Source: Escherichia phage 215Ecol030PP. From it: a stretch of 64,000 bases of DNA. Below, piece by piece: positions 3,159-35,477 of this stretch. A model generated the notes under the pieces. The model made no database searches. It had not been told where the DNA came from and was given only the letters and a program-made list of their open reading frames with translations. The position numbers were made by a program, and so were the translations under genes. Where the stretch lies: sequence record PP328843.1; one strand, 5' to 3'. Every line of letters begins with the position of its first letter. The stretch's first letter is position 1.

Positions 3159-5138
3159 ATGACTTTATTATCTCCGGGCATTGAGCTCAAAGAAACTACG
3201 GTTCAAAGCACCGTGGTTAATAACTCTACTGGTACAGCAGCTTTGGCCGGTAAATTCCAGTGGGGTCCTGCTTTTCAGATTAAACAGGTTACAAATGAAG
3301 TAGATTTAGTTAATACTTTTGGTCAACCAACCGCTGAAACTGCTGACTATTTTATGTCTGCGATGAATTTCTTGCAGTACGGAAATGACTTACGAGTAGT
3401 TCGTGCTGTTGATAGAGATACCGCTAAAAACTCATCTCCGATTGCCGGTAATATTGAATACACAATTTCTACCCCAGGTAGTAACTACGCAGTTGGAGAT
3501 AAAATCACGGTCAAATATGTTTCAGATGCTATTGAAACTGAAGGTAAAATTACTGAAGTAGACGTAGATGGAAAAATTAAGAAAATTAATATTCCTACTG
3601 CAAAAATTATCGCTAAAGCTAAAGAAGTCGGTGAATATCCAGCACTAGGTTCTAACTGGACTGCGGAAATTTCTTCATCTTCCTCTGGTTTAGCTGCAGT
3701 AATAACTCTTGGAAAAATTATTACTGATTCTGGTATTTTATTAGCTGAAATTGAAAATGCTGAAGCTGCTATGACAGAGGTTGGCTTTCAAGCAAATCTC
3801 GAAAAATACGGAATTCCAGGAGTAGTAGCGCTTTATCCAGGCGAATTAGGCGATAAAATTGAAATTGAAATCGTATCTAAAGCTGACTATGCAAAAGGAG
3901 CTTCTGCATTACTCCCAATTTATCCAGGTGGTGGTACTCGTGCATCTACTGCTAAAGCAGTGTTTGGATATGGACCACAAACTGATTCACAGTACGCTAT
4001 TATAGTTCGTCGTAATGATGCTATTGTTCAAAGCGTTGTTCTTTCAACTAAGCGTGGTGAAAAAGATATTTACGATAGTAACATCTATATCGATGACTTT
4101 TTCGCAAAAGGTGGTTCAGAATATATTTTTGCAACTGCACAAAACTGGCCAGAAGGCTTCTCTGGAATTTTAACTCTGTCTGGTGGATTATCATCAAATG
4201 CTGAAGTAACAGCAGGAGATTTGATGGAAGCTTGGGACTTCTTTGCTGACCGTGAATCCGTTGATGTTCAATTGTTTATTGCGGGTTCTTGTGCCGGTGA
4301 ATCTTTAGAAACAGCATCTACTGTCCAAAAACACGTCGTTTCAATTGGGGATGCTCGCCAAGATTGCTTAGTATTGTGCTCTCCTCCGCGTGAAACTGTA
4401 GTTGGAATTCCTGTAACTCGTGCTGTTGATAACTTAGTCAATTGGAGAACCGCAACAGGTTCATACACTGATAATAACTTTAATATCAGTTCAACCTACG
4501 CAGCAATTGATGGTAACTACAAGTATCAGTATGACAAATATAATGATGTGAATCGTTGGGTTCCATTAGCAGCTGATATTGCTGGTTTATGCGCAAGAAC
4601 TGATAACGTATCTCAGACTTGGATGTCTCCAGCTGGTTATAATCGTGGCCAAATTTTGAACGTTATTAAACTGGCTATTGAAACTCGCCAAGCTCAGCGC
4701 GACCGTTTATACCAAGAAGCTATCAACCCGGTAACTGGTACAGGTGGTGATGGTTACGTATTGTATGGTGATAAAACAGCTACTTCTGTTCCTTCTCCGT
4801 TTGATCGTATTAACGTTCGTCGTCTGTTTAATATGTTGAAAACGAATATCGGACGTAGTTCAAAATATCGTTTGTTCGAATTAAACAACGCGTTTACTCG
4901 TTCATCATTCCGCACAGAAACTGCCCAGTACTTACAGGGAATTAAAGCTCTCGGTGGAATTTATGAATATCGTGTAGTTTGCGATACAACAAATAACACT
5001 CCGTCAGTAATTGATAGAAATGAGTTTGTTGCAACATTCTACATCCAACCTGCGCGCAGTATAAATTATATCCAACTTAACTTCGTTGCGACTGCTACTG
5101 GTGCAGATTTCGATGAGTTAACTGGTCTTGCAGGTTAA
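3159..5138 (+). CDS. 18: contractile tail sheath protein gp18
   Basis: 659 aa ORF preceded by TATAAATA late promoter; T4 gp18 size and position. Confidence 0.95.
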   Translation: MTLLSPGIELKETTVQSTVVNNSTGTAALAGKFQWGPAFQIKQVTNEVDLVNTFGQPTAETADYFMSAMNFLQYGNDLRVVRAVDRDTAKNSSPIAGNIEYTISTPGSNYAVGDKITVKYVSDAIETEGKITEVDVDGKIKKINIPTAKIIAKAKEVGEYPALGSNWTAEISSSSSGLAAVITLGKIITDSGILLAEIENAEAAMTEVGFQANLEKYGIPGVVALYPGELGDKIEIEIVSKADYAKGASALLPIYPGGGTRASTAKAVFGYGPQTDSQYAIIVRRNDAIVQSVVLSTKRGEKDIYDSNIYIDDFFAKGGSEYIFATAQNWPEGFSGILTLSGGLSSNAEVTAGDLMEAWDFFADRESVDVQLFIAGSCAGESLETASTVQKHVVSIGDARQDCLVLCSPPRETVVGIPVTRAVDNLVNWRTATGSYTDNNFNISSTYAAIDGNYKYQYDKYNDVNRWVPLAADIAGLCARTDNVSQTWMSPAGYNRGQILNVIKLAIETRQAQRDRLYQEAINPVTGTGGDGYVLYGDKTATSVPSPFDRINVRRLFNMLKTNIGRSSKYRLFELNNAFTRSSFRTETAQYLQGIKALGGIYEYRVVCDTTNNTPSVIDRNEFVATFYIQPARSINYIQLNFVATATGADFDELTGLAG

Positions 5139-27045: not shown

Positions 27046-29103
27046 TTATCCTTGAACGAACTTGTAAGGCATGTTTGCAATATCTATGCAAGACGCAATA
27101 ATTCCAAGAGATGATTCTACTTTCTGTTTAACATTTGATGAAACAAATGATGCAAAGTCAACTCTGTCTTCTATTTCAATATCACCTGTCATTGCAACTA
27201 CTTCACCGGTTTCCATTAAACGGTCTCCGTCATAAATTACCGATTCGGTGAGTTCTTCTGTGGTCATAACTTCAGCTTGAATAAGCTTGTTGTTAGTTCT
27301 AACTGTTCCATCGTTGTAAGATGCATCGGTTATTTTATTAACTTTGACCATTAATCCACGTGGCAAAATGACTTCCATTTCATTTGAAGGCGCTAAACTT
27401 CCACCAGGTAAAACAACATTGACCTTATCAGCCCCAGTAATAACCCATCCAATTCCAACTAAATTATCGCTAGAATTTACTAGTCCTTCATCAGTTTTAT
27501 CAATAGAAACACTTAGACGTTTTTCGTCTGGTAAAACACCTATAGATGAATCAGTCATCCAAGTACCAAAAATATTTGGATATAATGATGTTGACACAAA
27601 GTTTCTAAAATAAAAAACTCGATTTTTTACCATTGCTTCATATATTGAAGGTAACATTCGTTGTGAACGATACAAAGTAATACCTTTTGGTAATCGTTCA
27701 CCATTTTTAAAGGCTGAATCTAAATTATCAATGGCTTGTTCTATTTCAGGTGCTGTTAAAATACTTGTACGCTCATCTGGATTATATAATCCCAAAAGAG
27801 CATTATTTATGTCTACATATCCTGAACCTACATATTCACGAATTCCGCGTTTTTGCGCTGGCGTGTATTTAGATGAATCTTTATTTTCGACTATAGGATG
27901 TAATGACCATCCAGCGGTAAGAGCATATCCACGTAATTCTCTTCGAATAATCTTTGTTTTTATTGCATTCCAAGAATTTTGTACTAACTCATTTGCAGCA
28001 TCTTGGTTTAAATGCGAATGTCTGTTAATATTTCTTTCAAACCAGGCACCTTTATATTTTTCTAAAGTATCATCGACGATAGAAGCAATAGTTTCTAAAG
28101 TTTTTATTGAAGTAATAGATTCTTTTCGTAATTTTTCTAAAGCTTTATTTTTTATTTCTGCATTAATAATGGATTCTTTATCTTCAGGAATTATAGAAGC
28201 TTCTCTGAATGCCATCCCAGCTGTAACACTGCTAAGAGCATTCTCTAGTGCAAATCCTGAAGTAGAAATTACCGTTAATTCATTAGAATCAGAAATTAAA
28301 GGCGCGTCCGCTGGTTTATTTAATTCTGCCGCTGAAGCCTCAAATTTTTGAAACATCGGTGTTTCAAATCTAGAAGATTCCAATGATTGACTTTGTGCAA
28401 TTGCTCTACGGGAAATTTTAACTTTAACGATTACAGCTTGGTCAGAACGTTTATCATTTTCTTGTGCAATAGATGCTGCAATTGCCTCATTTTTAGTTAC
28501 TTGAGCTCCAGTATCTTTATTGATATAAACATCACCGACCTTCGATTCAACCTTAGTAAAGAGCTCGGTACTAATTTCCGGAACTCCTGGAATGTCTTCT
28601 AGTGATACATTTTTGCGATGTATAAGAATATATGCATACTTTTTATCATAATCCCAGAGTTCCTTAAGAAGGACGTATCTGCCACCTGAACGACTACGGA
28701 TAAGTCTATCAGCAATAACTTGAATTTGTCGAGCTTGACCAGCAGTTTTAGACTTAAGAATACGAAGCATACAGGCATCAATTTTATACTGACGCATCGT
28801 CTGCATTGCAACAGTAAAAACTGAATTGATATAATTAATTGGGCTTGGACCAAGACCTTTCAATTTAGCAATTGAACCTTTAGCGGTTAATGTAAAAGGA
28901 ACAATATGCATCATTTTATCGCCCATCTTTAAATCACGATTAGTGTCACCTCCAGATGTATAGGTACATAAACGAAAGCCTGGTTGTTCAATTGCATCAT
29001 CAACATGAACTGAAAAAATTTGCGGTATTTTCTTCTTTGGATTTAAGTTTGTAATCGGAAGAGTAGTATCTTCGTCAAATAATTCTGTAATTAGTTCCAT
29101 CAT
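27046..29103 (-). CDS. alt: Alt, capsid-packaged ADP-ribosyltransferase
   Basis: 685 aa starting MMELITELFDEDTTLP; T4 Alt size and position. Confidence 0.92.
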   Translation of the reverse strand: MMELITELFDEDTTLPITNLNPKKKIPQIFSVHVDDAIEQPGFRLCTYTSGGDTNRDLKMGDKMMHIVPFTLTAKGSIAKLKGLGPSPINYINSVFTVAMQTMRQYKIDACMLRILKSKTAGQARQIQVIADRLIRSRSGGRYVLLKELWDYDKKYAYILIHRKNVSLEDIPGVPEISTELFTKVESKVGDVYINKDTGAQVTKNEAIAASIAQENDKRSDQAVIVKVKISRRAIAQSQSLESSRFETPMFQKFEASAAELNKPADAPLISDSNELTVISTSGFALENALSSVTAGMAFREASIIPEDKESIINAEIKNKALEKLRKESITSIKTLETIASIVDDTLEKYKGAWFERNINRHSHLNQDAANELVQNSWNAIKTKIIRRELRGYALTAGWSLHPIVENKDSSKYTPAQKRGIREYVGSGYVDINNALLGLYNPDERTSILTAPEIEQAIDNLDSAFKNGERLPKGITLYRSQRMLPSIYEAMVKNRVFYFRNFVSTSLYPNIFGTWMTDSSIGVLPDEKRLSVSIDKTDEGLVNSSDNLVGIGWVITGADKVNVVLPGGSLAPSNEMEVILPRGLMVKVNKITDASYNDGTVRTNNKLIQAEVMTTEELTESVIYDGDRLMETGEVVAMTGDIEIEDRVDFASFVSSNVKQKVESSLGIIASCIDIANMPYKFVQG

Positions 29104-29137
29104 ATCCTCTCTATTGTTTATTCTATTTATAAAATTA

Positions 29138-29155
29138 AAGGCCCGAAGGCCTTTA
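29138..29155 (-). terminator. hairpin between the 62-aa ORF and alt
   Basis: AAAGGCC-CGAA-GGCCTTT. Confidence 0.4.
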
Positions 29156-29341
29156 ATAATCTAGTGGTAAGAGAGTACGGTATATTTCAAACTTTGGACC
29201 TTTTTCATAGGCATCAAATGTTTCTGTGAATTTATTATAAGCATATGCATCTACAAATTCGAGAATGACTTGTGATACAGAAGTAGAAACATCTCCACCT
29301 TCTTTTTGAGCAATGACAATTGTTTCTAAGTAAGCTTTCAT
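29153..29341 (-). CDS. hypothetical small protein between gene 30 and alt
   Basis: 62 aa ORF, ATGA start/stop overlap with gene 30. Confidence 0.5.
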   Translation of the reverse strand: MKAYLETIVIAQKEGGDVSTSVSQVILEFVDAYAYNKFTETFDAYEKGPKFEIYRTLLPLDY

Positions 29342-30801
29342 AGACCAGTTACCTCATGAAAATCACCAAATACATCTTCGAACGTATTAGCTTTAGTTTT
29401 ATCTTCGCGTAAACGAATCGCAATCGGAAGAAATAATTTAACGTAATCAGTGCGGCCATCAGATTTTAACCAACCGTTGCATTCGCACTCTAGAATTTTT
29501 CCAATATAATAATTTTGGTTTTCCATAATGCGAGTACGGTCAAGTTCATGCGATTTTACACCGGCTTTATCTTTTAAGCCTGAACCAGCATTTACTTTAA
29601 TTTTTCCACACTCTGATTCAAGAATAAATCCACCTGCTTTAGTAGGGTCTTTACGGTGAGGATAAATTCCTACAATTTTTAAATCAACATCAATTACTTC
29701 TTTAAATTTATAGAGATTTTTTGAACGAGCATTTTCCCATAATCCATCGATATTTTTGAGAATAATACCTTCAAGACCTTGGTCAATATACTTTTTATAA
29801 ATTACCTTAGCTTCATCTAGGTTATTTACTACTTGGTTTTCAATTAAAATTACTTTATCATAGCCTGATGTCATTTGTTCTAGTTTAGAAAAACGTACAT
29901 CATATTTCAAACGAAATGCAGGAAGACCGTATATTTCTACCAACGGAACATAGTCCCAGACCTGAAACTTCATGCATTGAGCTTCTTTTTCAGAAATGGT
30001 TCCCTTTAAAGATTTATTAGCGATTCCATTAGAAGTAGTACGTGATTCAGCTACTTCGGCGAATTCTTTGGCTTTACTAATTTCAGGATAAGCATCAAAA
30101 AGAAAATCTAGGCCTTCTGGCTCCTTTTTAACTTGCTCATGGTATACCAATTCGCCATCAATTAACACGCCTTCTGGATGAATCTGGCGGGCTTCAGCGG
30201 TCATTTTGATTAATTCTTCCTTAAGAAGATCTAATCCTAGATATTCATTACCGGCTCGTGATAAAAGACGAACATCATCTAATTCATCACCTCTGACTTC
30301 GGCAAAGCACCGAGCTCCATCAGCTTTTAACTGGGCAAAGGCTGGAAATTTGATATTCTTATTAATGCCTTTTTCATCATAAGAACTTGCAAGCATTTGA
30401 GGTTGTTCAGGAATTAAACCTGGCCAAACTTTGTTTGCAATAGATACCGAAGCACCGCATTCAAGGTCTCGCATCATCACTCGACGCAAAACTTCAACAT
30501 CATCTTTTTTACCATCGGTGATGTATCCAGTTAATTCCTCAATTGCCGCATTTCCAGTCAATTTCCGAGTAGCTAACGTGAATTCAATGAAGTCAAGCAT
30601 ATCGGTAAGAGTCAACATTCCAAAACTCTGGGTAGCAATACCAGGTTTAGGCCATTTCTTGATATAATACTGCAACCCACGAGAATAAGTCAGACGATAT
30701 ACTCGTTTAAGCAATTCATTATCTTTATTCTTTTCAAGAATTGCTTGCTTCTGCTTAGTTGAACCAATAGATGCTATTTCGTTCAGAATTTTAAGAATCA
30801 T
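29338..30801 (-). CDS. 30: ATP-dependent DNA ligase gp30
   Basis: 487 aa; adenylation motif KADGAR. Confidence 0.95.
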   Translation of the reverse strand: MILKILNEIASIGSTKQKQAILEKNKDNELLKRVYRLTYSRGLQYYIKKWPKPGIATQSFGMLTLTDMLDFIEFTLATRKLTGNAAIEELTGYITDGKKDDVEVLRRVMMRDLECGASVSIANKVWPGLIPEQPQMLASSYDEKGINKNIKFPAFAQLKADGARCFAEVRGDELDDVRLLSRAGNEYLGLDLLKEELIKMTAEARQIHPEGVLIDGELVYHEQVKKEPEGLDFLFDAYPEISKAKEFAEVAESRTTSNGIANKSLKGTISEKEAQCMKFQVWDYVPLVEIYGLPAFRLKYDVRFSKLEQMTSGYDKVILIENQVVNNLDEAKVIYKKYIDQGLEGIILKNIDGLWENARSKNLYKFKEVIDVDLKIVGIYPHRKDPTKAGGFILESECGKIKVNAGSGLKDKAGVKSHELDRTRIMENQNYYIGKILECECNGWLKSDGRTDYVKLFLPIAIRLREDKTKANTFEDVFGDFHEVTGL

Positions 30802-31067
30802 TGTTCATCCTTCAGAGTTTGGTTTACAGCTCTATTATAAATCAATTCATCATTAAGCTCAGTCAAAGACTTATGATATGTGGTTCTAACTTTATTTCCT
30901 TGCATCCAGTGCTTGACGTAAATGAAACCTTGCTCTACACATTTTTTAAAAATTCGTTCGTCTTTTTGAGCTCGGAATTCTGGATTGCATCTAAAAAATT
31001 GATTTACGTGACCGTAATCACGTGTAGTATTACCTTCATTTTCATAAATGGTATGAACAACAAACAT
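30798..31067 (-). CDS. hypothetical early protein (30.x cluster)
   Basis: 89 aa, ATGA overlap with gene 30. Confidence 0.6.
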   Translation of the reverse strand: MFVVHTIYENEGNTTRDYGHVNQFFRCNPEFRAQKDERIFKKCVEQGFIYVKHWMQGNKVRTTYHKSLTELNDELIYNRAVNQTLKDEQ

Positions 31068-31906
31068 TAGAATGCTCCTTGGAAAATATTATCACCACTA
31101 GTAGGTCTATTATACAAATACTCTATGCCACCAGGTTTAATATAGTTCCATGTCTGAAACGGATGTGTCTGATATGGATGATATAGATGATTATAAGGAT
31201 TAAATCCAGGAGTTCTCCAGGTAGTGTTCCAAGGAAAAGAATCGTTTTTGATCATCTTCTCAATTACATCTTTTATAACTTTTTCACTATCAAAACTTTC
31301 TTTATTTTCCTTCGATGGAAAAAGCTTATTCTCTACATCATTCCATGTATAAACTCGCTGAGCAGTTTTTGGAATATTGTCACGTTCTCCTCGAGCCATC
31401 CAATAAACCGGAACATTTAATATTTCACTCGCGTGGTCGCAGTGGTGAGCGAGATCGTCAATATAACAAATTACGTTATATTTCTCTTTTGCCTTTTTAA
31501 ACAACTCTTCTTTTGAAGAATCATGACCACACATCATTACTTCTGAGAAGGCACCAGGAAAAAGAGCATTCAAATTAAATTGACGATTTAATAGAGCGTC
31601 AATAGAATCACCCAGCGCTGTAACAGCTACAAAATTATAATCTTCTTTTAATTTGTTAATTACACACAGAGCATCTTTATATGGAGACAAGTAACGAATA
31701 AAATCTGAACGATTGTATTTTTCAATTAACTTGACGCCAAGTTCTTCGTCACAATTAAAAAGTTTACCAGGAGAAATAAATTTTTCATCTTGGATCATTT
31801 TTAAAATATGTTCCAATGGAAGATTATATTTCTGGGCAAAATAAGGAAGACCCGATTGCCAGCTTAAACATACTCCATCAATATCAGTTAAAATAGTAGG
31901 CTTCAT
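31067..31906 (-). CDS. HAD-superfamily hydrolase-like protein (30.x cluster)
   Basis: 279 aa; N-terminal LTDIDGV matches HAD motif I (DxDx[TV]). Confidence 0.65.
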   Translation of the reverse strand: MKPTILTDIDGVCLSWQSGLPYFAQKYNLPLEHILKMIQDEKFISPGKLFNCDEELGVKLIEKYNRSDFIRYLSPYKDALCVINKLKEDYNFVAVTALGDSIDALLNRQFNLNALFPGAFSEVMMCGHDSSKEELFKKAKEKYNVICYIDDLAHHCDHASEILNVPVYWMARGERDNIPKTAQRVYTWNDVENKLFPSKENKESFDSEKVIKDVIEKMIKNDSFPWNTTWRTPGFNPYNHLYHPYQTHPFQTWNYIKPGGIEYLYNRPTSGDNIFQGAF

Positions 31907-32367
31907 AGAGAGTCTCTTAATAGGTTTAACACATCAATAAATTCAGCTTCGGTTAGTATTGTATCATCTTTTGTTAGACCACTAGCCATGCTGTGCTTCA
32001 AAACTTTTCCTTTCGAGGCTTGTAATGCATCACGAAATCCCTTGTTTTGGATCGCTGCTTCAAAATATGCATTTGTGTATAATTCTTTCCACGCCGGGGA
32101 GTATCTTGAAAACGGAACTCCAAGCCAAAAGAGGGTCCCGCGGTCCTGAGCTCTTGCATAAGACCTTCCAGCTTGTTGGGCGGCAAGCCCGGATAACCCA
32201 AATATACGACGTTGTTGTTCAACGTTTTTCACCTTACACCCTTGGAGGAATCCTTCGAGACCTCCAAATTGGATACCATCCATAACGAAAGGCCATTGGG
32301 CGAAATTGCTTAATGCACATGATGGCCATCTAAAATTGCTTCTTATCTCTAGCTCAGGCATTTTCAA
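31903..32367 (-). CDS. NADAR / YbiA-like (DUF1768) domain protein (30.x cluster)
   Basis: 154 aa; SNFAQWPFVMDG...EGFLQGCKV matches YbiA signature SNFA.WP...DG...EH.FQ..KF as recalled. Confidence 0.6.
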   Translation of the reverse strand: MKMPELEIRSNFRWPSCALSNFAQWPFVMDGIQFGGLEGFLQGCKVKNVEQQRRIFGLSGLAAQQAGRSYARAQDRGTLFWLGVPFSRYSPAWKELYTNAYFEAAIQNKGFRDALQASKGKVLKHSMASGLTKDDTILTEAEFIDVLNLLRDSL

Positions 32368-32560
32368 TACTTATAATTTCAACATCAGCCCAATGACCAT
32401 AGCAAGGAAGACGAAATTCAACTGGCCAGTTAGGGTCCTTTTCTAATATAATAGACTTAACTTGTGGTTCTTCATGTTCATCGGTATACGGACCTTTATA
32501 CGTTACTTTATATGTGACCTTAATGTACTGAATTCCAAAAATCTTATTAATTATATTCAT
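32354..32560 (-). CDS. hypothetical early protein (30.x cluster)
   Basis: 68 aa ORF. Confidence 0.5.
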   Translation of the reverse strand: MNIINKIFGIQYIKVTYKVTYKGPYTDEHEEPQVKSIILEKDPNWPVEFRLPCYGHWADVEIISIENA

Positions 32561-32754
32561 ACTAATTCCTTTAATCCATAGATAGGAGATAATTCATCAC
32601 CCATACGAAGGTCTTCATTTCCATCTACCCAGGAAACAATATAAGCCTCTTTTATTTGAACGTCTCTCCATTTAAATGCAGGCAAAACCTTAGAAATTAA
32701 TCCAGGTATACCGACTCCCTTTAATTCAACAGTTTGACCCAAAAAGAATTTCAT
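32557..32754 (-). CDS. hypothetical early protein (30.x cluster)
   Basis: 65 aa ORF, ATGA overlap. Confidence 0.5.
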   Translation of the reverse strand: MKFFLGQTVELKGVGIPGLISKVLPAFKWRDVQIKEAYIVSWVDGNEDLRMGDELSPIYGLKELV

Positions 32755-33041
32755 TAGAACCTCATCTGAAATCCGTGCGATTTAACATTACCACCACCAA
32801 TGTCAGAAATATTAATTTCACGCGCAATTGAAGGGTCAATGTCAATTTCACGATTGAGTTTAATGATTGCTAGAGTATCACGTCCATTTACAGTACGGAA
32901 CTCTAAAGGACATACTACATTAACGTAGTTTTTAATCGATTCACTGGTAGGTTGCAAATGAGCAGGAAGGCCTTTAGGCGCCTTTGAGAAAACCACTTCA
33001 CAGAAATTTTTACGGGTATCAAAATAAGTAGTCATAAACAT
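32754..33041 (-). CDS. hypothetical early protein (30.x cluster)
   Basis: 95 aa ORF. Confidence 0.55.
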   Translation of the reverse strand: MFMTTYFDTRKNFCEVVFSKAPKGLPAHLQPTSESIKNYVNVVCPLEFRTVNGRDTLAIIKLNREIDIDPSIAREINISDIGGGNVKSHGFQMRF

Positions 33042-33057
33042 AGTATTTTCCTCAGTA

Positions 33058-33073
33058 AGGGGCCGAAGCCCCT
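33058..33073 (-). terminator. hairpin within ligase-region early cluster
   Basis: AGGGGC-CGAA-GCCCCT. Confidence 0.4.
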
Positions 33074-33082
33074 CATTTATTT

Positions 33083-33448
33083 TTAAATATCAAATTCGTT
33101 AAGAACTACATCAAAGATTGCTTCAAGATGCTCAGGTTTAGCTCTGTTACTCAGAATATGACGAATCCAAGTTTTAACCAGAAGCTTGCGATTAACGCCA
33201 TTCCAACAAGGATGAGTACCTAAATCACGTTGACGGAAATCATCATCTAATGCGATTTTAAAGGAAGAACCTTCTTTCGTGATTGAAACCGTGATGCCAT
33301 TTTCAAATCGCATATAAACGTAGTTAGGAGTCATATACTGTTCAATTTCGCATACTGATCCATTTTGATGTTTCCAAAGGCAGATAGTATCAATAGAACC
33401 TGCAATACCATTAGAAACATATTTACGTTCAAAGTTGATGTAGTTCAT
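33083..33448 (-). CDS. hypothetical early protein (30.x cluster)
   Basis: 121 aa; SD GGAGAA and early promoter upstream. Confidence 0.6.
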   Translation of the reverse strand: MNYINFERKYVSNGIAGSIDTICLWKHQNGSVCEIEQYMTPNYVYMRFENGITVSITKEGSSFKIALDDDFRQRDLGTHPCWNGVNRKLLVKTWIRHILSNRAKPEHLEAIFDVVLNEFDI

Positions 33449-33475
33449 TTTTATTCTCCGAGATGTTTAATTGCG

Positions 33476-33514
33476 GTACAGGTATATAATATCATATCCT
33501 GTACCAAAGTAAAC
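33476..33514 (-). promoter_or_regulatory. early promoter upstream of 30.x ORF at 33448
   Basis: GTTTAC-N17-TATTAT with 8-bp inverted repeat GGTACAGG/CCTGTACC embracing the -10. Confidence 0.5.
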
Positions 33515-33516
33515 AA

Positions 33517-33849
33517 TTATTTTACTACTTTCCAATGCTGCATGTCAAGTTTACCAACTTTTTTCATCTTCTCAATCAAACGTTCGGCACGTTGACGGGC
33601 TGTAACATAATACCATTCACCTAATTCATTTTGTTCAATTTTTCCAACGATTACTGTATTCAATTCATAAATCCAACCAGTAAAGAAATTATGAACTTGA
33701 ATTGTAAAGGTGAAATCTGTTCCCATACCTTCTGTTGTTTCTACTTCAATAATATCACCTTCAACTGCCATTAAGAACCACATAGTTTCATCATATTTAC
33801 CATTGAAGCATTTAGTTTTAACTGCAGCGTTCAGATTAATCGTTTTCAT
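33517..33849 (-). CDS. hypothetical early protein (30.x cluster)
   Basis: 110 aa; SD AAGGAGA and early promoter upstream. Confidence 0.6.
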   Translation of the reverse strand: MKTINLNAAVKTKCFNGKYDETMWFLMAVEGDIIEVETTEGMGTDFTFTIQVHNFFTGWIYELNTVIVGKIEQNELGEWYYVTARQRAERLIEKMKKVGKLDMQHWKVVK

Positions 33850-33869
33850 TTTATTCTCCTTTGTTTGTG

Positions 33870-33906
33870 TAAGATAATACTATCACAAAGGAACCATACT
33901 GTAAAC
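33870..33906 (-). promoter_or_regulatory. early promoter upstream of 30.x ORF at 33849
   Basis: GTTTAC ... TAGTAT; inverted repeat TCCTTTGT/ACAAAGGA spans -10 and SD. Confidence 0.5.
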
Positions 33907-33935
33907 AACTTTATGCAATCTTTGGAAAATAAAAA

Positions 33936-33955
33936 AGGACTCCCGAAGGAGTCCT
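33936..33955 (-). terminator. hairpin downstream of the 30.9-position ORF
   Basis: AGGACTCC-CGAA-GGAGTCCT. Confidence 0.45.
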
Positions 33956-33959
33956 CAAC

Positions 33960-34136
33960 TTATGCTTTCTGCTTACCAAAACGAGAAGCATCATCTCGAA
34001 GAACCGCACGTGCTCGGCGCATGATCTTCTCAACAGTTTGATTGATACGAGAGTTCGACCCACGCTTGTAGCCAGCGCGTTTAGAATCACCAACTTTCTT
34101 TTCAACTGCTTTCTTTGCTTTAGCTTGTTTTGCCAT
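33960..34136 (-). CDS. small basic protein (30.9 position)
   Basis: ORF track extends to 34178; ATG at 34136 gives 58 aa MAKQAKAKKAVEKK... Confidence 0.5.
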   Translation of the reverse strand: MAKQAKAKKAVEKKVGDSKRAGYKRGSNSRINQTVEKIMRRARAVLRDDASRFGKQKA

Positions 34137-34380
34137 TATAAATTCTCTTTTAAATGAAAATGCAGGACTTATTGGCATTGCCTGCGCAAGCCCTCAAGGG
34201 GAACATAGGTTTTTGGATATTTAACGACCAGGATAACCATAAACCCGTCATCATTCACATTCAAGAGGTACACCGTAAAACTGCCGGGGTCTTAAAACTA
34301 TAATGATTCGCAAATCATTAATCAGACAGTTCGACGGCTCCTCGATTTAGCTCACACTAAGGCAGTGAATCTCCAATAAA

Positions 34381-34629
34381 TTACTTCAATGTTACCACAA
34401 AGTGACGAACTGCTTTTCGCGCAGCAGAAGCCAAAGGCTTAGCATATTTAAGTTCATCTTTTTCCTGAAGCTCAGCAGCTAATGCAGTTTGAGCAGGATT
34501 CAGATGTTTGAAATAACGCAGGATTTCAAGAGCTTCGGCTTCAACATCAATAGATGCGCCATAGTTTTCGTGACCATTATTCCATGCGTTTCGTTGCAGT
34601 TCAAGAGCGTGTTGTAATTGTTTAATCAT
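34381..34629 (-). CDS. rIII: rIII lysis-inhibition accessory protein
   Basis: 82 aa; position upstream of ligase cluster and downstream of gene 31; late promoter upstream. Confidence 0.75.
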   Translation of the reverse strand: MIKQLQHALELQRNAWNNGHENYGASIDVEAEALEILRYFKHLNPAQTALAAELQEKDELKYAKPLASAARKAVRHFVVTLK

Positions 34630-34768
34630 TTAAAAATTCTCGTTAGAGATTAAAACTCGGTAGTCACGTTCTTCTGAATTTCATCTTCTTTCGACAGATC
34701 TCTCAGTTGTAGACTACCACATAGAATTGTTCGGTTAACTTATTATTCCGACACCCAATTCATATTAT

Positions 34769-34776
34769 TATTTATA
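34769..34776 (-). promoter_or_regulatory. late promoter TATAAATA upstream of rIII
   Basis: Minus-strand TATAAATA in the 31-rIII intergenic region. Confidence 0.5.
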
Positions 34777-35112
34777 TCACTTATAAAGACACGGAATAGC
34801 TTTATAGTGACAAGTAACGAATTTTTGTTTAATTTCTTTTGGCTGCTTAAGACCCAGAGCTACAAAAGGATGCGGAACATTTCGAATTTGACCAACTGGA
34901 AGAGAAGTCAAATCACCAACTTCGCAGAAACCTTCAGGAACATCAGGACCGACAGAGTGAATTACACACAGTTCAGGAACTTCACCTTGAACACGTTTAC
35001 CGATAATAAGTCCTGATTCTGTAACTTCTTCATCACCGGCTTGTGCAGGTTCAGAAACTAAAATAACATATTCACCGACAGCACGAATTGGTAGCTGTTG
35101 TACTTCAGACAT
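34777..35112 (-). CDS. 31: gp31 GroES-like co-chaperonin
   Basis: 111 aa, T4 gp31 size. Confidence 0.9.
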
Positions 35113-35168
35113 CGTTTTTCCTTTTTGTTAACAGATGAATTAATAATAACAAATAATTCTTAAAGCAT

Positions 35169-35477
35169 TTATTTACCAATAAATTGGAGCAAATGCTCAA
35201 CTTTCATACCATTAACGGAAATCAATTTGTCAATAGAAAAACCTCGCCATGCACCAAGCTCAACATCAAATACTGGAACCATATCAGTAGATTCTTTCCT
35301 AGTAGATTCCGTCAATTTACCAGTTTGCATGGTTGGCATAAAGTCTGCATCACGAGTACCTTTCATAACACGAATAGTACCATCAGACTTTTCAAAAACT
35401 ACGCTTGAAACACCCATGGACAATTTAGTTTTCAAAATTTCACGAATTGCTACTTTTTGTTCAGTCGTCAGTTTCAT
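35169..35477 (-). CDS. hypothetical protein (31.1 position)
   Basis: 102 aa ORF. Confidence 0.6.
   Translation of the reverse strand: MKLTTEQKVAIREILKTKLSMGVSSVVFEKSDGTIRVMKGTRDADFMPTMQTGKLTESTRKESTDMVPVFDVELGAWRGFSIDKLISVNGMKVEHLLQFIGK

Follow-up and report, generated by a model that had tools for sequence, protein, structure and literature searches.

Here we analyse two adjacent early genes of Escherichia phage 215Ecol030PP (sequence record PP328843.1) within a window of 64,000 nucleotides (nt), the whole stretch of DNA that was analysed. By sequence, the two open reading frames (ORFs), read on the minus strand at 31067-31906 (279 residues) and in the region 31903-32367, where a preliminary description had placed them, are T4 genes 30.2 and 30.3. 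We consider it probable, from sequence comparison, that gene 30.3 is adfN, which encodes an ADP-ribosyl glycohydrolase of the NADAR fold, and that gp30.2 is a capped HAD phosphatase; a functional link between the two proteins has, in our view, slightly less than an even chance. The core of this finding, AdfN, is already known, and what is added is the placement of gp30.2 and the linkage between NADAR and NT5C-type proteins. The features on which the analysis rests are as follows.

32362-32367, minus strand: two extra codons, TTG AAA, probably untranslated (T4 annotation and E36/K43 numbering)
31903-32361, minus strand: gene 30.3, assigned as adfN, a 152-residue NADAR-fold ADP-ribosyl glycohydrolase (Pfam PF08010, identity to T4)
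32254-32256, 32233-32235 and 31993-31995, minus strand: catalytic codons of gene 30.3 for E36, K43 and the phage-type H123, respectively
31903-31906, minus strand: ATGA overlap of the 30.3 stop and the 30.2 start (read from the sequence)
31307-31906, minus strand: gene 30.2 residues 1-200, predicted capped (C1) HAD phosphatase core, with invariant W16 and R108 (motifs, model)
31871-31885, minus strand: gene 30.2 motif I, D8-x-D10-G-V
31070-31306, minus strand: gene 30.2 residues 201-279, lineage-specific and mostly disordered tail (predicted local distance difference test (pLDDT) scores, alignment)
31100-31132, minus strand: conserved tail peptide, gp30.2 residues 259-269 (alignment)
31067-31069, minus strand: gene 30.2 stop codon

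The DNA is colinear with T4 over positions 29000-35200, at 96.7% identity, and the window is that of a T4-like phage. Between 27 and 35 kilobases (kb), a region of tightly packed early genes on the minus strand, the gene order is that of the T4 annotation (alt, alt.1, 30, 30.1, 30.2, 30.3, 30.4 to 30.9, rIII and 31), which bears out the earlier placement of the pair in an early cluster between ligase and rIII, near alt. The DNA ligase (gene 30) has 484 of 487 residues as in T4, and rIII has 82 of 82. The 30.1-30.4 segment was matched by Megablast in 699 phage records, almost all of them Tequatrovirus-like. Direct sequence searches were insufficient to place the two proteins, neither of which had a direct match in PADLOC, NCBIfam, the Pfam NADAR and HAD models or a phmmer search against the PDB, and both profiles and structure prediction were required.

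The preliminary description gave gene 30.3 as a 154-residue ORF at 31903-32367. The ORF itself stands, and its start and length need a correction of 6 nt: the TTG at 32367 is merely the first possible start, and we take the ATG at 32361 (459 nt, 152 residues), because T4 annotates this ATG and because only this ATG reproduces the published numbers of E36 and K43. The reading frame from this ATG shares 8 nt with the end of 30.4. The protein is identical to T4 gp30.3 at 150 of 152 residues, and it shares with T4 AdfN (PMC11825919) the gene order, the start, E36, K43 and H123 and the full C-terminal helix; only S2P and I125M differ, and Met125 is the commoner residue within the gp30.3 family.

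gp30.3 matches Pfam PF08010 (Phage_30_3) across the full model (E = 2.4e-70, 235.2 bits against a cut-off of 36), a family that Pfam files separately from NADAR. The preliminary description had proposed a profile check against the NADAR and HAD families. There is no match of gp30.3 to Pfam NADAR (PF08719) at E ≤ 1, and the gathering score is not reached; distant relatives score 20-21 bits against PF08719 (E of about 5e-4 to 1e-3), under the 35.1 cut-off, and the best PDB match of a ten-member gp30.3 profile is E. coli YbiA (E = 0.055). In the profile alignment, LSNFAQWPFVMDGIQFGGLEGFLQGCK of gp30.3 is matched to FSNFAAWPIKVDGKTWPTSEHYFQAQK of YbiA and falls on the motif SNFA-x-WP...DG...E-x-x-(F)Q-x-x-K, so that the YbiA/NADAR-like SNFA-x-WP signature noticed earlier is a real shared motif. 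E36, K43 and H123 are invariant in 10 gp30.3-family members down to 40% identity, E36 and K43 align with the E/K motif of YbiA, and H123 sits in LKHSM on the last strand, as His and not Glu or Asp. A last-strand His is the hallmark of phage NADARs (PMC11125620). Membership of gp30.3 in the NADAR superfamily is supported by these comparisons. Since the protein is 99% identical to T4 AdfN, has all the catalytic residues and keeps an intact C-terminal helix (138-151 in the model of the full 152 residues, with no RB69-type truncation), the gp30.3 of this phage should be functional.

Other NADARs differ from gp30.3 in sequence and context. The antitoxins associated with DarG1 and DarT1 (8bat from Geobacter lovleyi and the E. 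coli C7 NADAR) have a last-strand Asp where phage gp30.3 has His, and in DarG1 an electropositive channel is built by additional elements at the N-terminus, whereas the phage NADAR is the core domain only (PMC12945103). In contrast to the DarT1-associated antitoxins, the phage gene has no adjacent DarT, and gp30.3 lacks the DarG1-type (BC4488) antitoxin traits, with His in place of Asp and with 30.4 and 30.2 as its flanking genes. T4 AdfN cannot serve as an antitoxin in uninfected cells (PMC11825919, PMC11125620). E. coli YbiA (2b3w) and a Phytophthora NADAR (8bau) are 18-21% identical to gp30.3 and have Glu, rather than the phage His, on the last strand; YbiA is also an N-glycosidase of a riboflavin intermediate (Iyer et al. 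2022, PMC11125620).

T4 annotates an internal, out-of-frame gene 30.3' within 30.3 (31998-32225, minus strand). Its ATG start reads ACG in this phage, without altering the residue encoded in the 30.3 frame, and 30.3' carries four internal residue changes from T4 in addition to the lost start Met; the nearest change in 30.3, I125M, lies just outside the overlap. Because the changes in 30.3' leave the overlapping 30.3 residues unchanged, the comparison suggests that selection acts on the 30.3 frame only and puts in doubt whether 30.3' is a real gene.

T4 gp30.3 was renamed AdfN, for anti-DarT factor NADAR, by Johannesman et al. (Nat Commun 2025, PMC11825919), who found that T4 and T2 deleted for adfN no longer plaque on DarTG1 hosts. 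The allele of RB69 is 15 residues shorter and that phage is sensitive to DarTG1; T4 adfN supplied in trans rescues it, and T4 AdfN cut like that of RB69 has reduced activity (PMC11825919). Purified AdfN strips ADP-ribose from DarT1-modified DNA and the E36A protein does not, and in plaque assays E36A and K43A give partial rescue only (PMC11825919). The T4 NADAR is active in vitro on DNA carrying guanine-linked ADP-ribose (G-ADPr) (PMC11125620), an activity reported again on single-stranded DNA (PMC12945103), and NADARs also act on G-ADPr RNA (PMC11833690); no activity was seen on thymidine-ADPr or phosphate-linked ADPr (PMC11125620, PMC11833690, PMC12945103). Guanine nucleosides and mononucleotides are among the listed targets of the guanine-specific ADP-ribosyltransferases whose adducts NADARs reverse (PMC12945103), and Iyer et al. 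(2022) described T4-like NADARs as early genes alongside ADP-ribosyltransferases. Reversal of host ADP-ribosylation of phage DNA, one of two roles offered by the preliminary description, is established experimentally for the 99%-identical T4 AdfN (PMC11825919, PMC11125620). One detail of this literature is at variance with the gene: Methods section 4.2 of PMC11125620 lists the T4 NADAR construct as 'gp30.3; residues 1-208', against 152 residues for the T4 gene, and tags or other sequence are possible.

In an infected DarTG1 host, the DarT1 toxin ADP-ribosylates phage DNA and blocks its replication. As shown for T4, and carried over to the present phage by the 99% identity, AdfN, a minimal NADAR fold, hydrolyses the N-glycosidic bond that joins ADP-ribose to the N2 of guanine in DNA, and removal of the adduct releases ADP-ribose and restores the guanine, allowing the phage to replicate. 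Since gp30.3 hardly differs from an enzyme whose counter-defence role is characterised, the present phage is predicted to resist DarTG1.

The 279-residue product of gene 30.2 starts with MKPTILTDIDGV, is 97% identical to T4 gp30.2 and matches PHROG 420 (E = 7e-93); on its own, the protein matches nothing significantly in Pfam, NCBIfam or the PDB sequences. HAD motif I (DIDGV), with which the ORF had been said to open, lies at residues 8-12, and alignment revealed the full HAD catalytic set, with motif I at D8-x-D10-G11, motif II at T96, motif III at K132 and motif IV at D150-D151. Across 34 aligned homologues, D8, D10, G11 and K132 are invariant and T96, D150 and D151 nearly so; in relatives at 21-31% identity, D8, D10, R108 and K132 are still invariant and W16 is nearly invariant. 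The best PDB sequence match of the gp30.2-family profile is the cytosolic 5'(3')-deoxyribonucleotidase (cdN) 2jao (E = 0.043), and in the alignments W16, eight positions after the nucleophile, takes the place of a Phe, that of DMDGVLADF in cdN and that of DMDNVLVDF in phage NT5Cs. In structures of cdN and the mitochondrial deoxyribonucleotidase (mdN), the aromatic residue at +8 stacks on the base. The gp30.2 model has a Rossmann-like HAD core, and its helices between residues 16 and 86 make up a helical C1 cap.

The gp30.2 family is large, with 1395 cluster representatives at E ≤ 1e-3 in an exhaustive profile search. Among 43 relatives at 21-31% identity, 18 match Pfam NT5C at E ≤ 1e-3, the most of any family, and relatives that the gp30.2 profile reaches at E of about 1e-20 exceed the PF06941 gathering score of 24.8 bits (P0384 with 32.3 bits and P0382 with 25.7 bits). 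The window protein itself has no match to PF06941 and does not reach its gathering score. Because its own match is absent while such relatives pass, we treat gp30.2 as a divergent sister branch and not as a scored NT5C member. Compared with the NT5C family (cdN/mdN 2jao and 6g2n; 3bwv from S. epidermidis), gp30.2 is about 15-20% identical, has Trp for Phe at +8, falls below the Pfam NT5C threshold and carries an extra disordered tail of 80 residues. Its predicted fold and its motifs mark gp30.2 as a capped phosphatase of the HAD superfamily, divergent from the NT5C family but next to it.

The tail of about 80 residues (201-279) is missing from family members of about 200 residues, and pLDDT is below 50 for residues 224-233, 239-262 and 264-279. 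It is rich in Pro and aromatic residues and contains a conserved peptide, G-x-G-IEY-[LWY]-x-x-[RQ]-P-T, which is clear in 9 of the 34 aligned members, from several enterobacterial phage lineages, with degenerate versions in two more; the peptide may be a docking motif. Longer gp30.2 relatives (P0289, P0352, P0244 and P0282) have extra regions without a Pfam match. T4 gene 30.2 is kept in about 1450 sequenced phages, and some GenBank records call its homologues 5' nucleotidase, HAD protein, phosphatase or hydrolase; a literature search found no functional study of gp30.2. In Acinetobacter phage AB1I1M-1, a 216-residue gp30.2 homologue (L004 4592-5242) is labelled 'DNA ligase' and the neighbouring 499-residue gene in the ligase position (L004 5289-6788) 'hypothetical protein', labels that have likely been swapped.

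The stop of 30.3 and the start of 30.2 overlap by 4 nt in the window, as they do in T4, in Morganella phage Rgz1 and, for a NADAR/NT5C pair, in Vibrio phage 6E35.1a, and the ATGA overlap suggests that translation of 30.2 is coupled to that of 30.3. We counted linkage by tblastn with the concatenated 30.3 and 30.2 proteins, calling the genes adjacent where one place covered at least 80% of the query. Of the 1567 phage records that have either gene, 987 show this arrangement, in which NADAR precedes the HAD gene on the same strand and at a short distance. Adjacency is kept in Morganella and Acinetobacter phages, and in RB43 and LPCS28 two or three small ORFs lie between the two genes. RB69, whose AdfN is short, has its own gp30.2. 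A single-piece NADAR and HAD match in Acinetobacter phage AB2I2 resolved into two in-frame genes and was rejected as a fusion.

The pairing also occurs at a second locus with a different phosphatase. In the 48 records of KVP40-like Vibrio phages, a canonical Pfam NT5C gene (E = 6e-11) overlaps the 30.3 homologue. This pair is flanked by a-gt.4 and gene 47, and the same genomes encode, elsewhere, another homologue that is closer to gp30.2. In Vibrio phage 6E35-1b, this closer homologue (L038 3504-4076) is three annotated genes from NadV, a nicotinamide phosphoribosyltransferase, on the opposite strand, and the proximity hints at a connection to NAD salvage.

The two domain types are also found in one polypeptide. 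On two IMG/VR contigs, one ORF joins a gp30.3-type NADAR at its N-terminus to an NT5C domain at its C-terminus, and a search with that fusion as the query returned 1502 proteins, the best 120 of which all carry PF08010 and PF06941, giving at least 120 fusion clusters among the matches listed. KptA-NADAR-NT5C triple fusions of about 505 residues, with an N-terminal KptA/Tpt1 RNA 2'-phosphotransferase, account for 18 of these best 120. The domain order, NADAR then NT5C, is the T4 gene order of 30.3 then 30.2; the fused NADAR domains carry the phage-type His, and the fused NT5C domains are bona fide (PDB cdN, E = 1.5e-16). Representative loci are as follows.

L042 6001-6936 (loci L042-L044 and L034): NADAR-NT5C fusion, Bacteroidaceae/Prevotellaceae by source name
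L040/L041, 6001-7512: KptA-NADAR-NT5C triple fusion

The fusion genes lie directly upstream of an ADP-ribosylglycohydrolase (ARG) gene. The NADAR-NT5C fusions share their islands with genes for an NrtR-like Nudix regulator, SIR2, a PTP-type phosphatase, PP2C and an integrase, whereas the triple fusions have an RNA ligase and an HD/P-loop kinase (HD/AAA_33 kinase) as neighbours. The Nudix/SIR2/PTP context resembles the ARG-centred systems that Iyer et al. (2022) described, in which NADAR and a HAD 5' nucleotidase are occasional accessories and phosphatases were suggested to process released ADP-ribose. In the literature searched, a link of NADAR to NT5C or HAD is limited to a passing mention in Iyer et al. 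(2022), and neither the NADAR-NT5C fusion nor its match to T4 30.3-30.2 is described, the paper that defined NADAR (de Souza and Aravind 2012) being outside that coverage. His-type 'phage' NADARs are abundant outside phages, as fusions on contigs assigned by source name to Bacteroidaceae/Prevotellaceae.

The KVP40-like pair and the fusions resemble the window in having a His-type NADAR followed by an NT5C-type HAD, with the same stop/start overlap in Vibrio phage 6E35.1a. They differ in that their HAD is a canonical NT5C (PDB cdN, E = 1e-16), related to gp30.2 at the profile level only (hhalign probability of 87-90% between fused or NADAR-linked NT5C domains and gp30.2), and in their contexts, the a-gt.4/47 locus in the KVP40-like phages and ARG-centred or RNA-repair islands for the bacterial fusions, neither of which is the T4 30 locus.

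The recurrent pairing and fusion argue for one NADAR/NT5C pathway, and we infer, at slightly less than an even chance, that gp30.2 and AdfN share a single pathway for clearing ADP-ribose adducts. In gp30.2, D8 is the predicted nucleophile, forming an aspartyl-phosphate, and D10 the predicted acid/base. Because gp30.2 has a helical cap, it would act on a small nucleotide-like phosphomonoester and not on DNA ends: capped HAD enzymes take small molecules, and polynucleotide phosphatases are capless. In the pathway, the enzyme would take the phosphate off mononucleotides that carry ADP-ribose, or off fragments of the ADP-ribose that AdfN releases. Candidate substrates are ADP-ribosylated guanine mononucleotides from degraded modified DNA, AMP or ribose-5-phosphate formed by Nudix cleavage of ADP-ribose, and phosphorylated ADP-ribose species in the KptA-linked versions.

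A more specific proposal concerns a requirement reported for AdfN itself. T4 AdfN does not protect uninfected E. coli against DarT1 and gives T5 and Bas25 no more than slight rescue, and it fully rescues RB69, a phage with its own gp30.2; because of the pattern of rescue, Johannesman et al. invoked an additional T-even protein that AdfN needs in vivo (PMC11825919). We put forward gp30.2 as a candidate for that factor, with the His-type NADAR and the NT5C-type HAD forming a conserved two-enzyme module for adduct clearing, although we regard this as unlikely enough to be offered tentatively. The module would be common to T4-like phages, KVP40-like phages and, as fusions, the ARG- and KptA-associated islands on Bacteroidaceae/Prevotellaceae contigs, and its phosphatase would dispose of mononucleotides bearing ADP-ribose or of phosphorylated products of ADP-ribose. 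The placement of gp30.2 and the pairing pattern give a lead on why AdfN works only during T-even infection, the question raised in the 2025 AdfN paper, and gp30.2 and NT5C provide a biochemical lead for the phosphatase parts of the ARG-centred bacterial systems predicted by Iyer et al. (2022).

Several observations weigh against a link between 30.2 and 30.3. Purified AdfN works alone in vitro, and two other phage NADARs work without a helper (PMC11825919). A HAD enzyme finds no terminal phosphomonoester on ADP-ribose, and the substrate of the phosphatase must therefore be something other than free ADP-ribose. The two genes are apart in Aeromonas, Jiaodavirus and Karamvirus phages; gp30.2 stays by DNA ligase where NADAR has moved to a transfer RNA (tRNA) cluster, and in Aeromonas phage L9-6 and Klebsiella phage Roth66, where it sits immediately before ligase, no NADAR gene is annotated beside it. 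In Krischvirus Cognac, NADAR abuts ligase on the upstream side without 30.2 between them. None of 242 family proteins is a fusion of NADAR to the gp30.2 subfamily proper, and adjacency within T4-like phages may be inherited synteny. The relocated NADAR genes lie inside a tRNA gene cluster, away from 30.2 and ligase, in four phages, each at about 4001-4450 of the extracted locus.

L006: Aeromonas phage L9-6
L007: Klebsiella phage Mineola
L010: Enterobacter phage PG7
L008: Ralstonia phage RSP15

This association of NADAR with tRNA clusters recurs in several genera, including one phage classified in the Ackermannviridae.

Such separation is what would be expected if gp30.2 were a stand-alone (deoxy)nucleotidase that tunes or cleans the nucleotide pool by dephosphorylating unwanted deoxynucleoside monophosphates from degraded host DNA, unrelated to AdfN, its adjacency being the ancestral order in a packed early operon. 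The NT5C-like fold and motifs of gp30.2 and the size of its family, made up mostly of stand-alone proteins of about 200 residues, are also consistent with this account, to which we give a lesser but substantial chance. It leaves unexplained the gp30.3-type NADAR-NT5C fusions and the KVP40-like pair, re-made at another locus with a different NT5C paralogue.

The proximity to ligase raises a second alternative, in which gp30.2 works with gp30 as an end-healing phosphatase, clearing nicks of 3'- or 5'-phosphates for sealing by ligase, as the HAD phosphatase domain of polynucleotide kinase (PNK) does. In its favour, ligase is directly preceded by a gp30.2 homologue in most of the T4-like lineages examined, including ones where NADAR has moved, and gp30.2 has a weak Pfam match to HAD_PNKP (E = 0.17). 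That match, at 12.4 bits, stays under the cut-off of 27.6 and is not significant, the sequence relative that recurs is NT5C, and the modelled C1 cap (residues 16 to 86) fits small molecules; the protein is thus unlike the 3'-phosphatase domain of T4 PseT in cap and in Pfam match. The PseT phosphatase is capless and acts on nucleic-acid ends. We consider end healing improbable.

It is likewise quite unlikely that the NADAR mainly degrades soluble immune signals derived from ADP-ribose or reverses ADP-ribosylation by the phage enzymes Alt and Mod rather than repairing DNA, the second option of the preliminary description and a prediction of Iyer et al. (2022): expression from the early region a few kb from alt, NADAR activity on guanosine-ADPr in RNA (PMC11833690) and the guanine nucleosides and mononucleotides among transferase targets (PMC12945103) are compatible with it, but T4 and T2 without adfN lose plaquing specifically on DarTG1 hosts, AdfN removes ADPr from DarT1-modified DNA in vitro with catalytic mutants impaired (PMC11825919), NADARs are inactive on phosphate-linked ADPr (PMC11833690) and the alt linkage is not conserved. 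Proximity to alt, which had been taken as a functional clue, was rejected as such, in that AdfN acts on DarT1-modified guanine in DNA and not on Alt protein targets, and the linkage is lost in several T4-like lineages, where NADAR sits in the tRNA cluster far from alt.

Around the two genes, a repeat search over 30700-32700 found just two short AT-rich inverted pairs, and a promoter and terminator scan gave site counts no higher than in shuffled sequence; because of these counts, we make no claim about transcription units beyond the gene packing. The sequence TTGACA-18-TAAAAT upstream of 30.7 is close to the sigma-70 consensus (11/12), and a GC-rich hairpin with a T-run lies inside the end of the 30.9 reading frame (30.9 stop at 33960), both on the minus strand (33519-33548 / 33935-33956 listed for promoter and hairpin). 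The two could bound an early transcription unit that holds 30.3 and 30.2.

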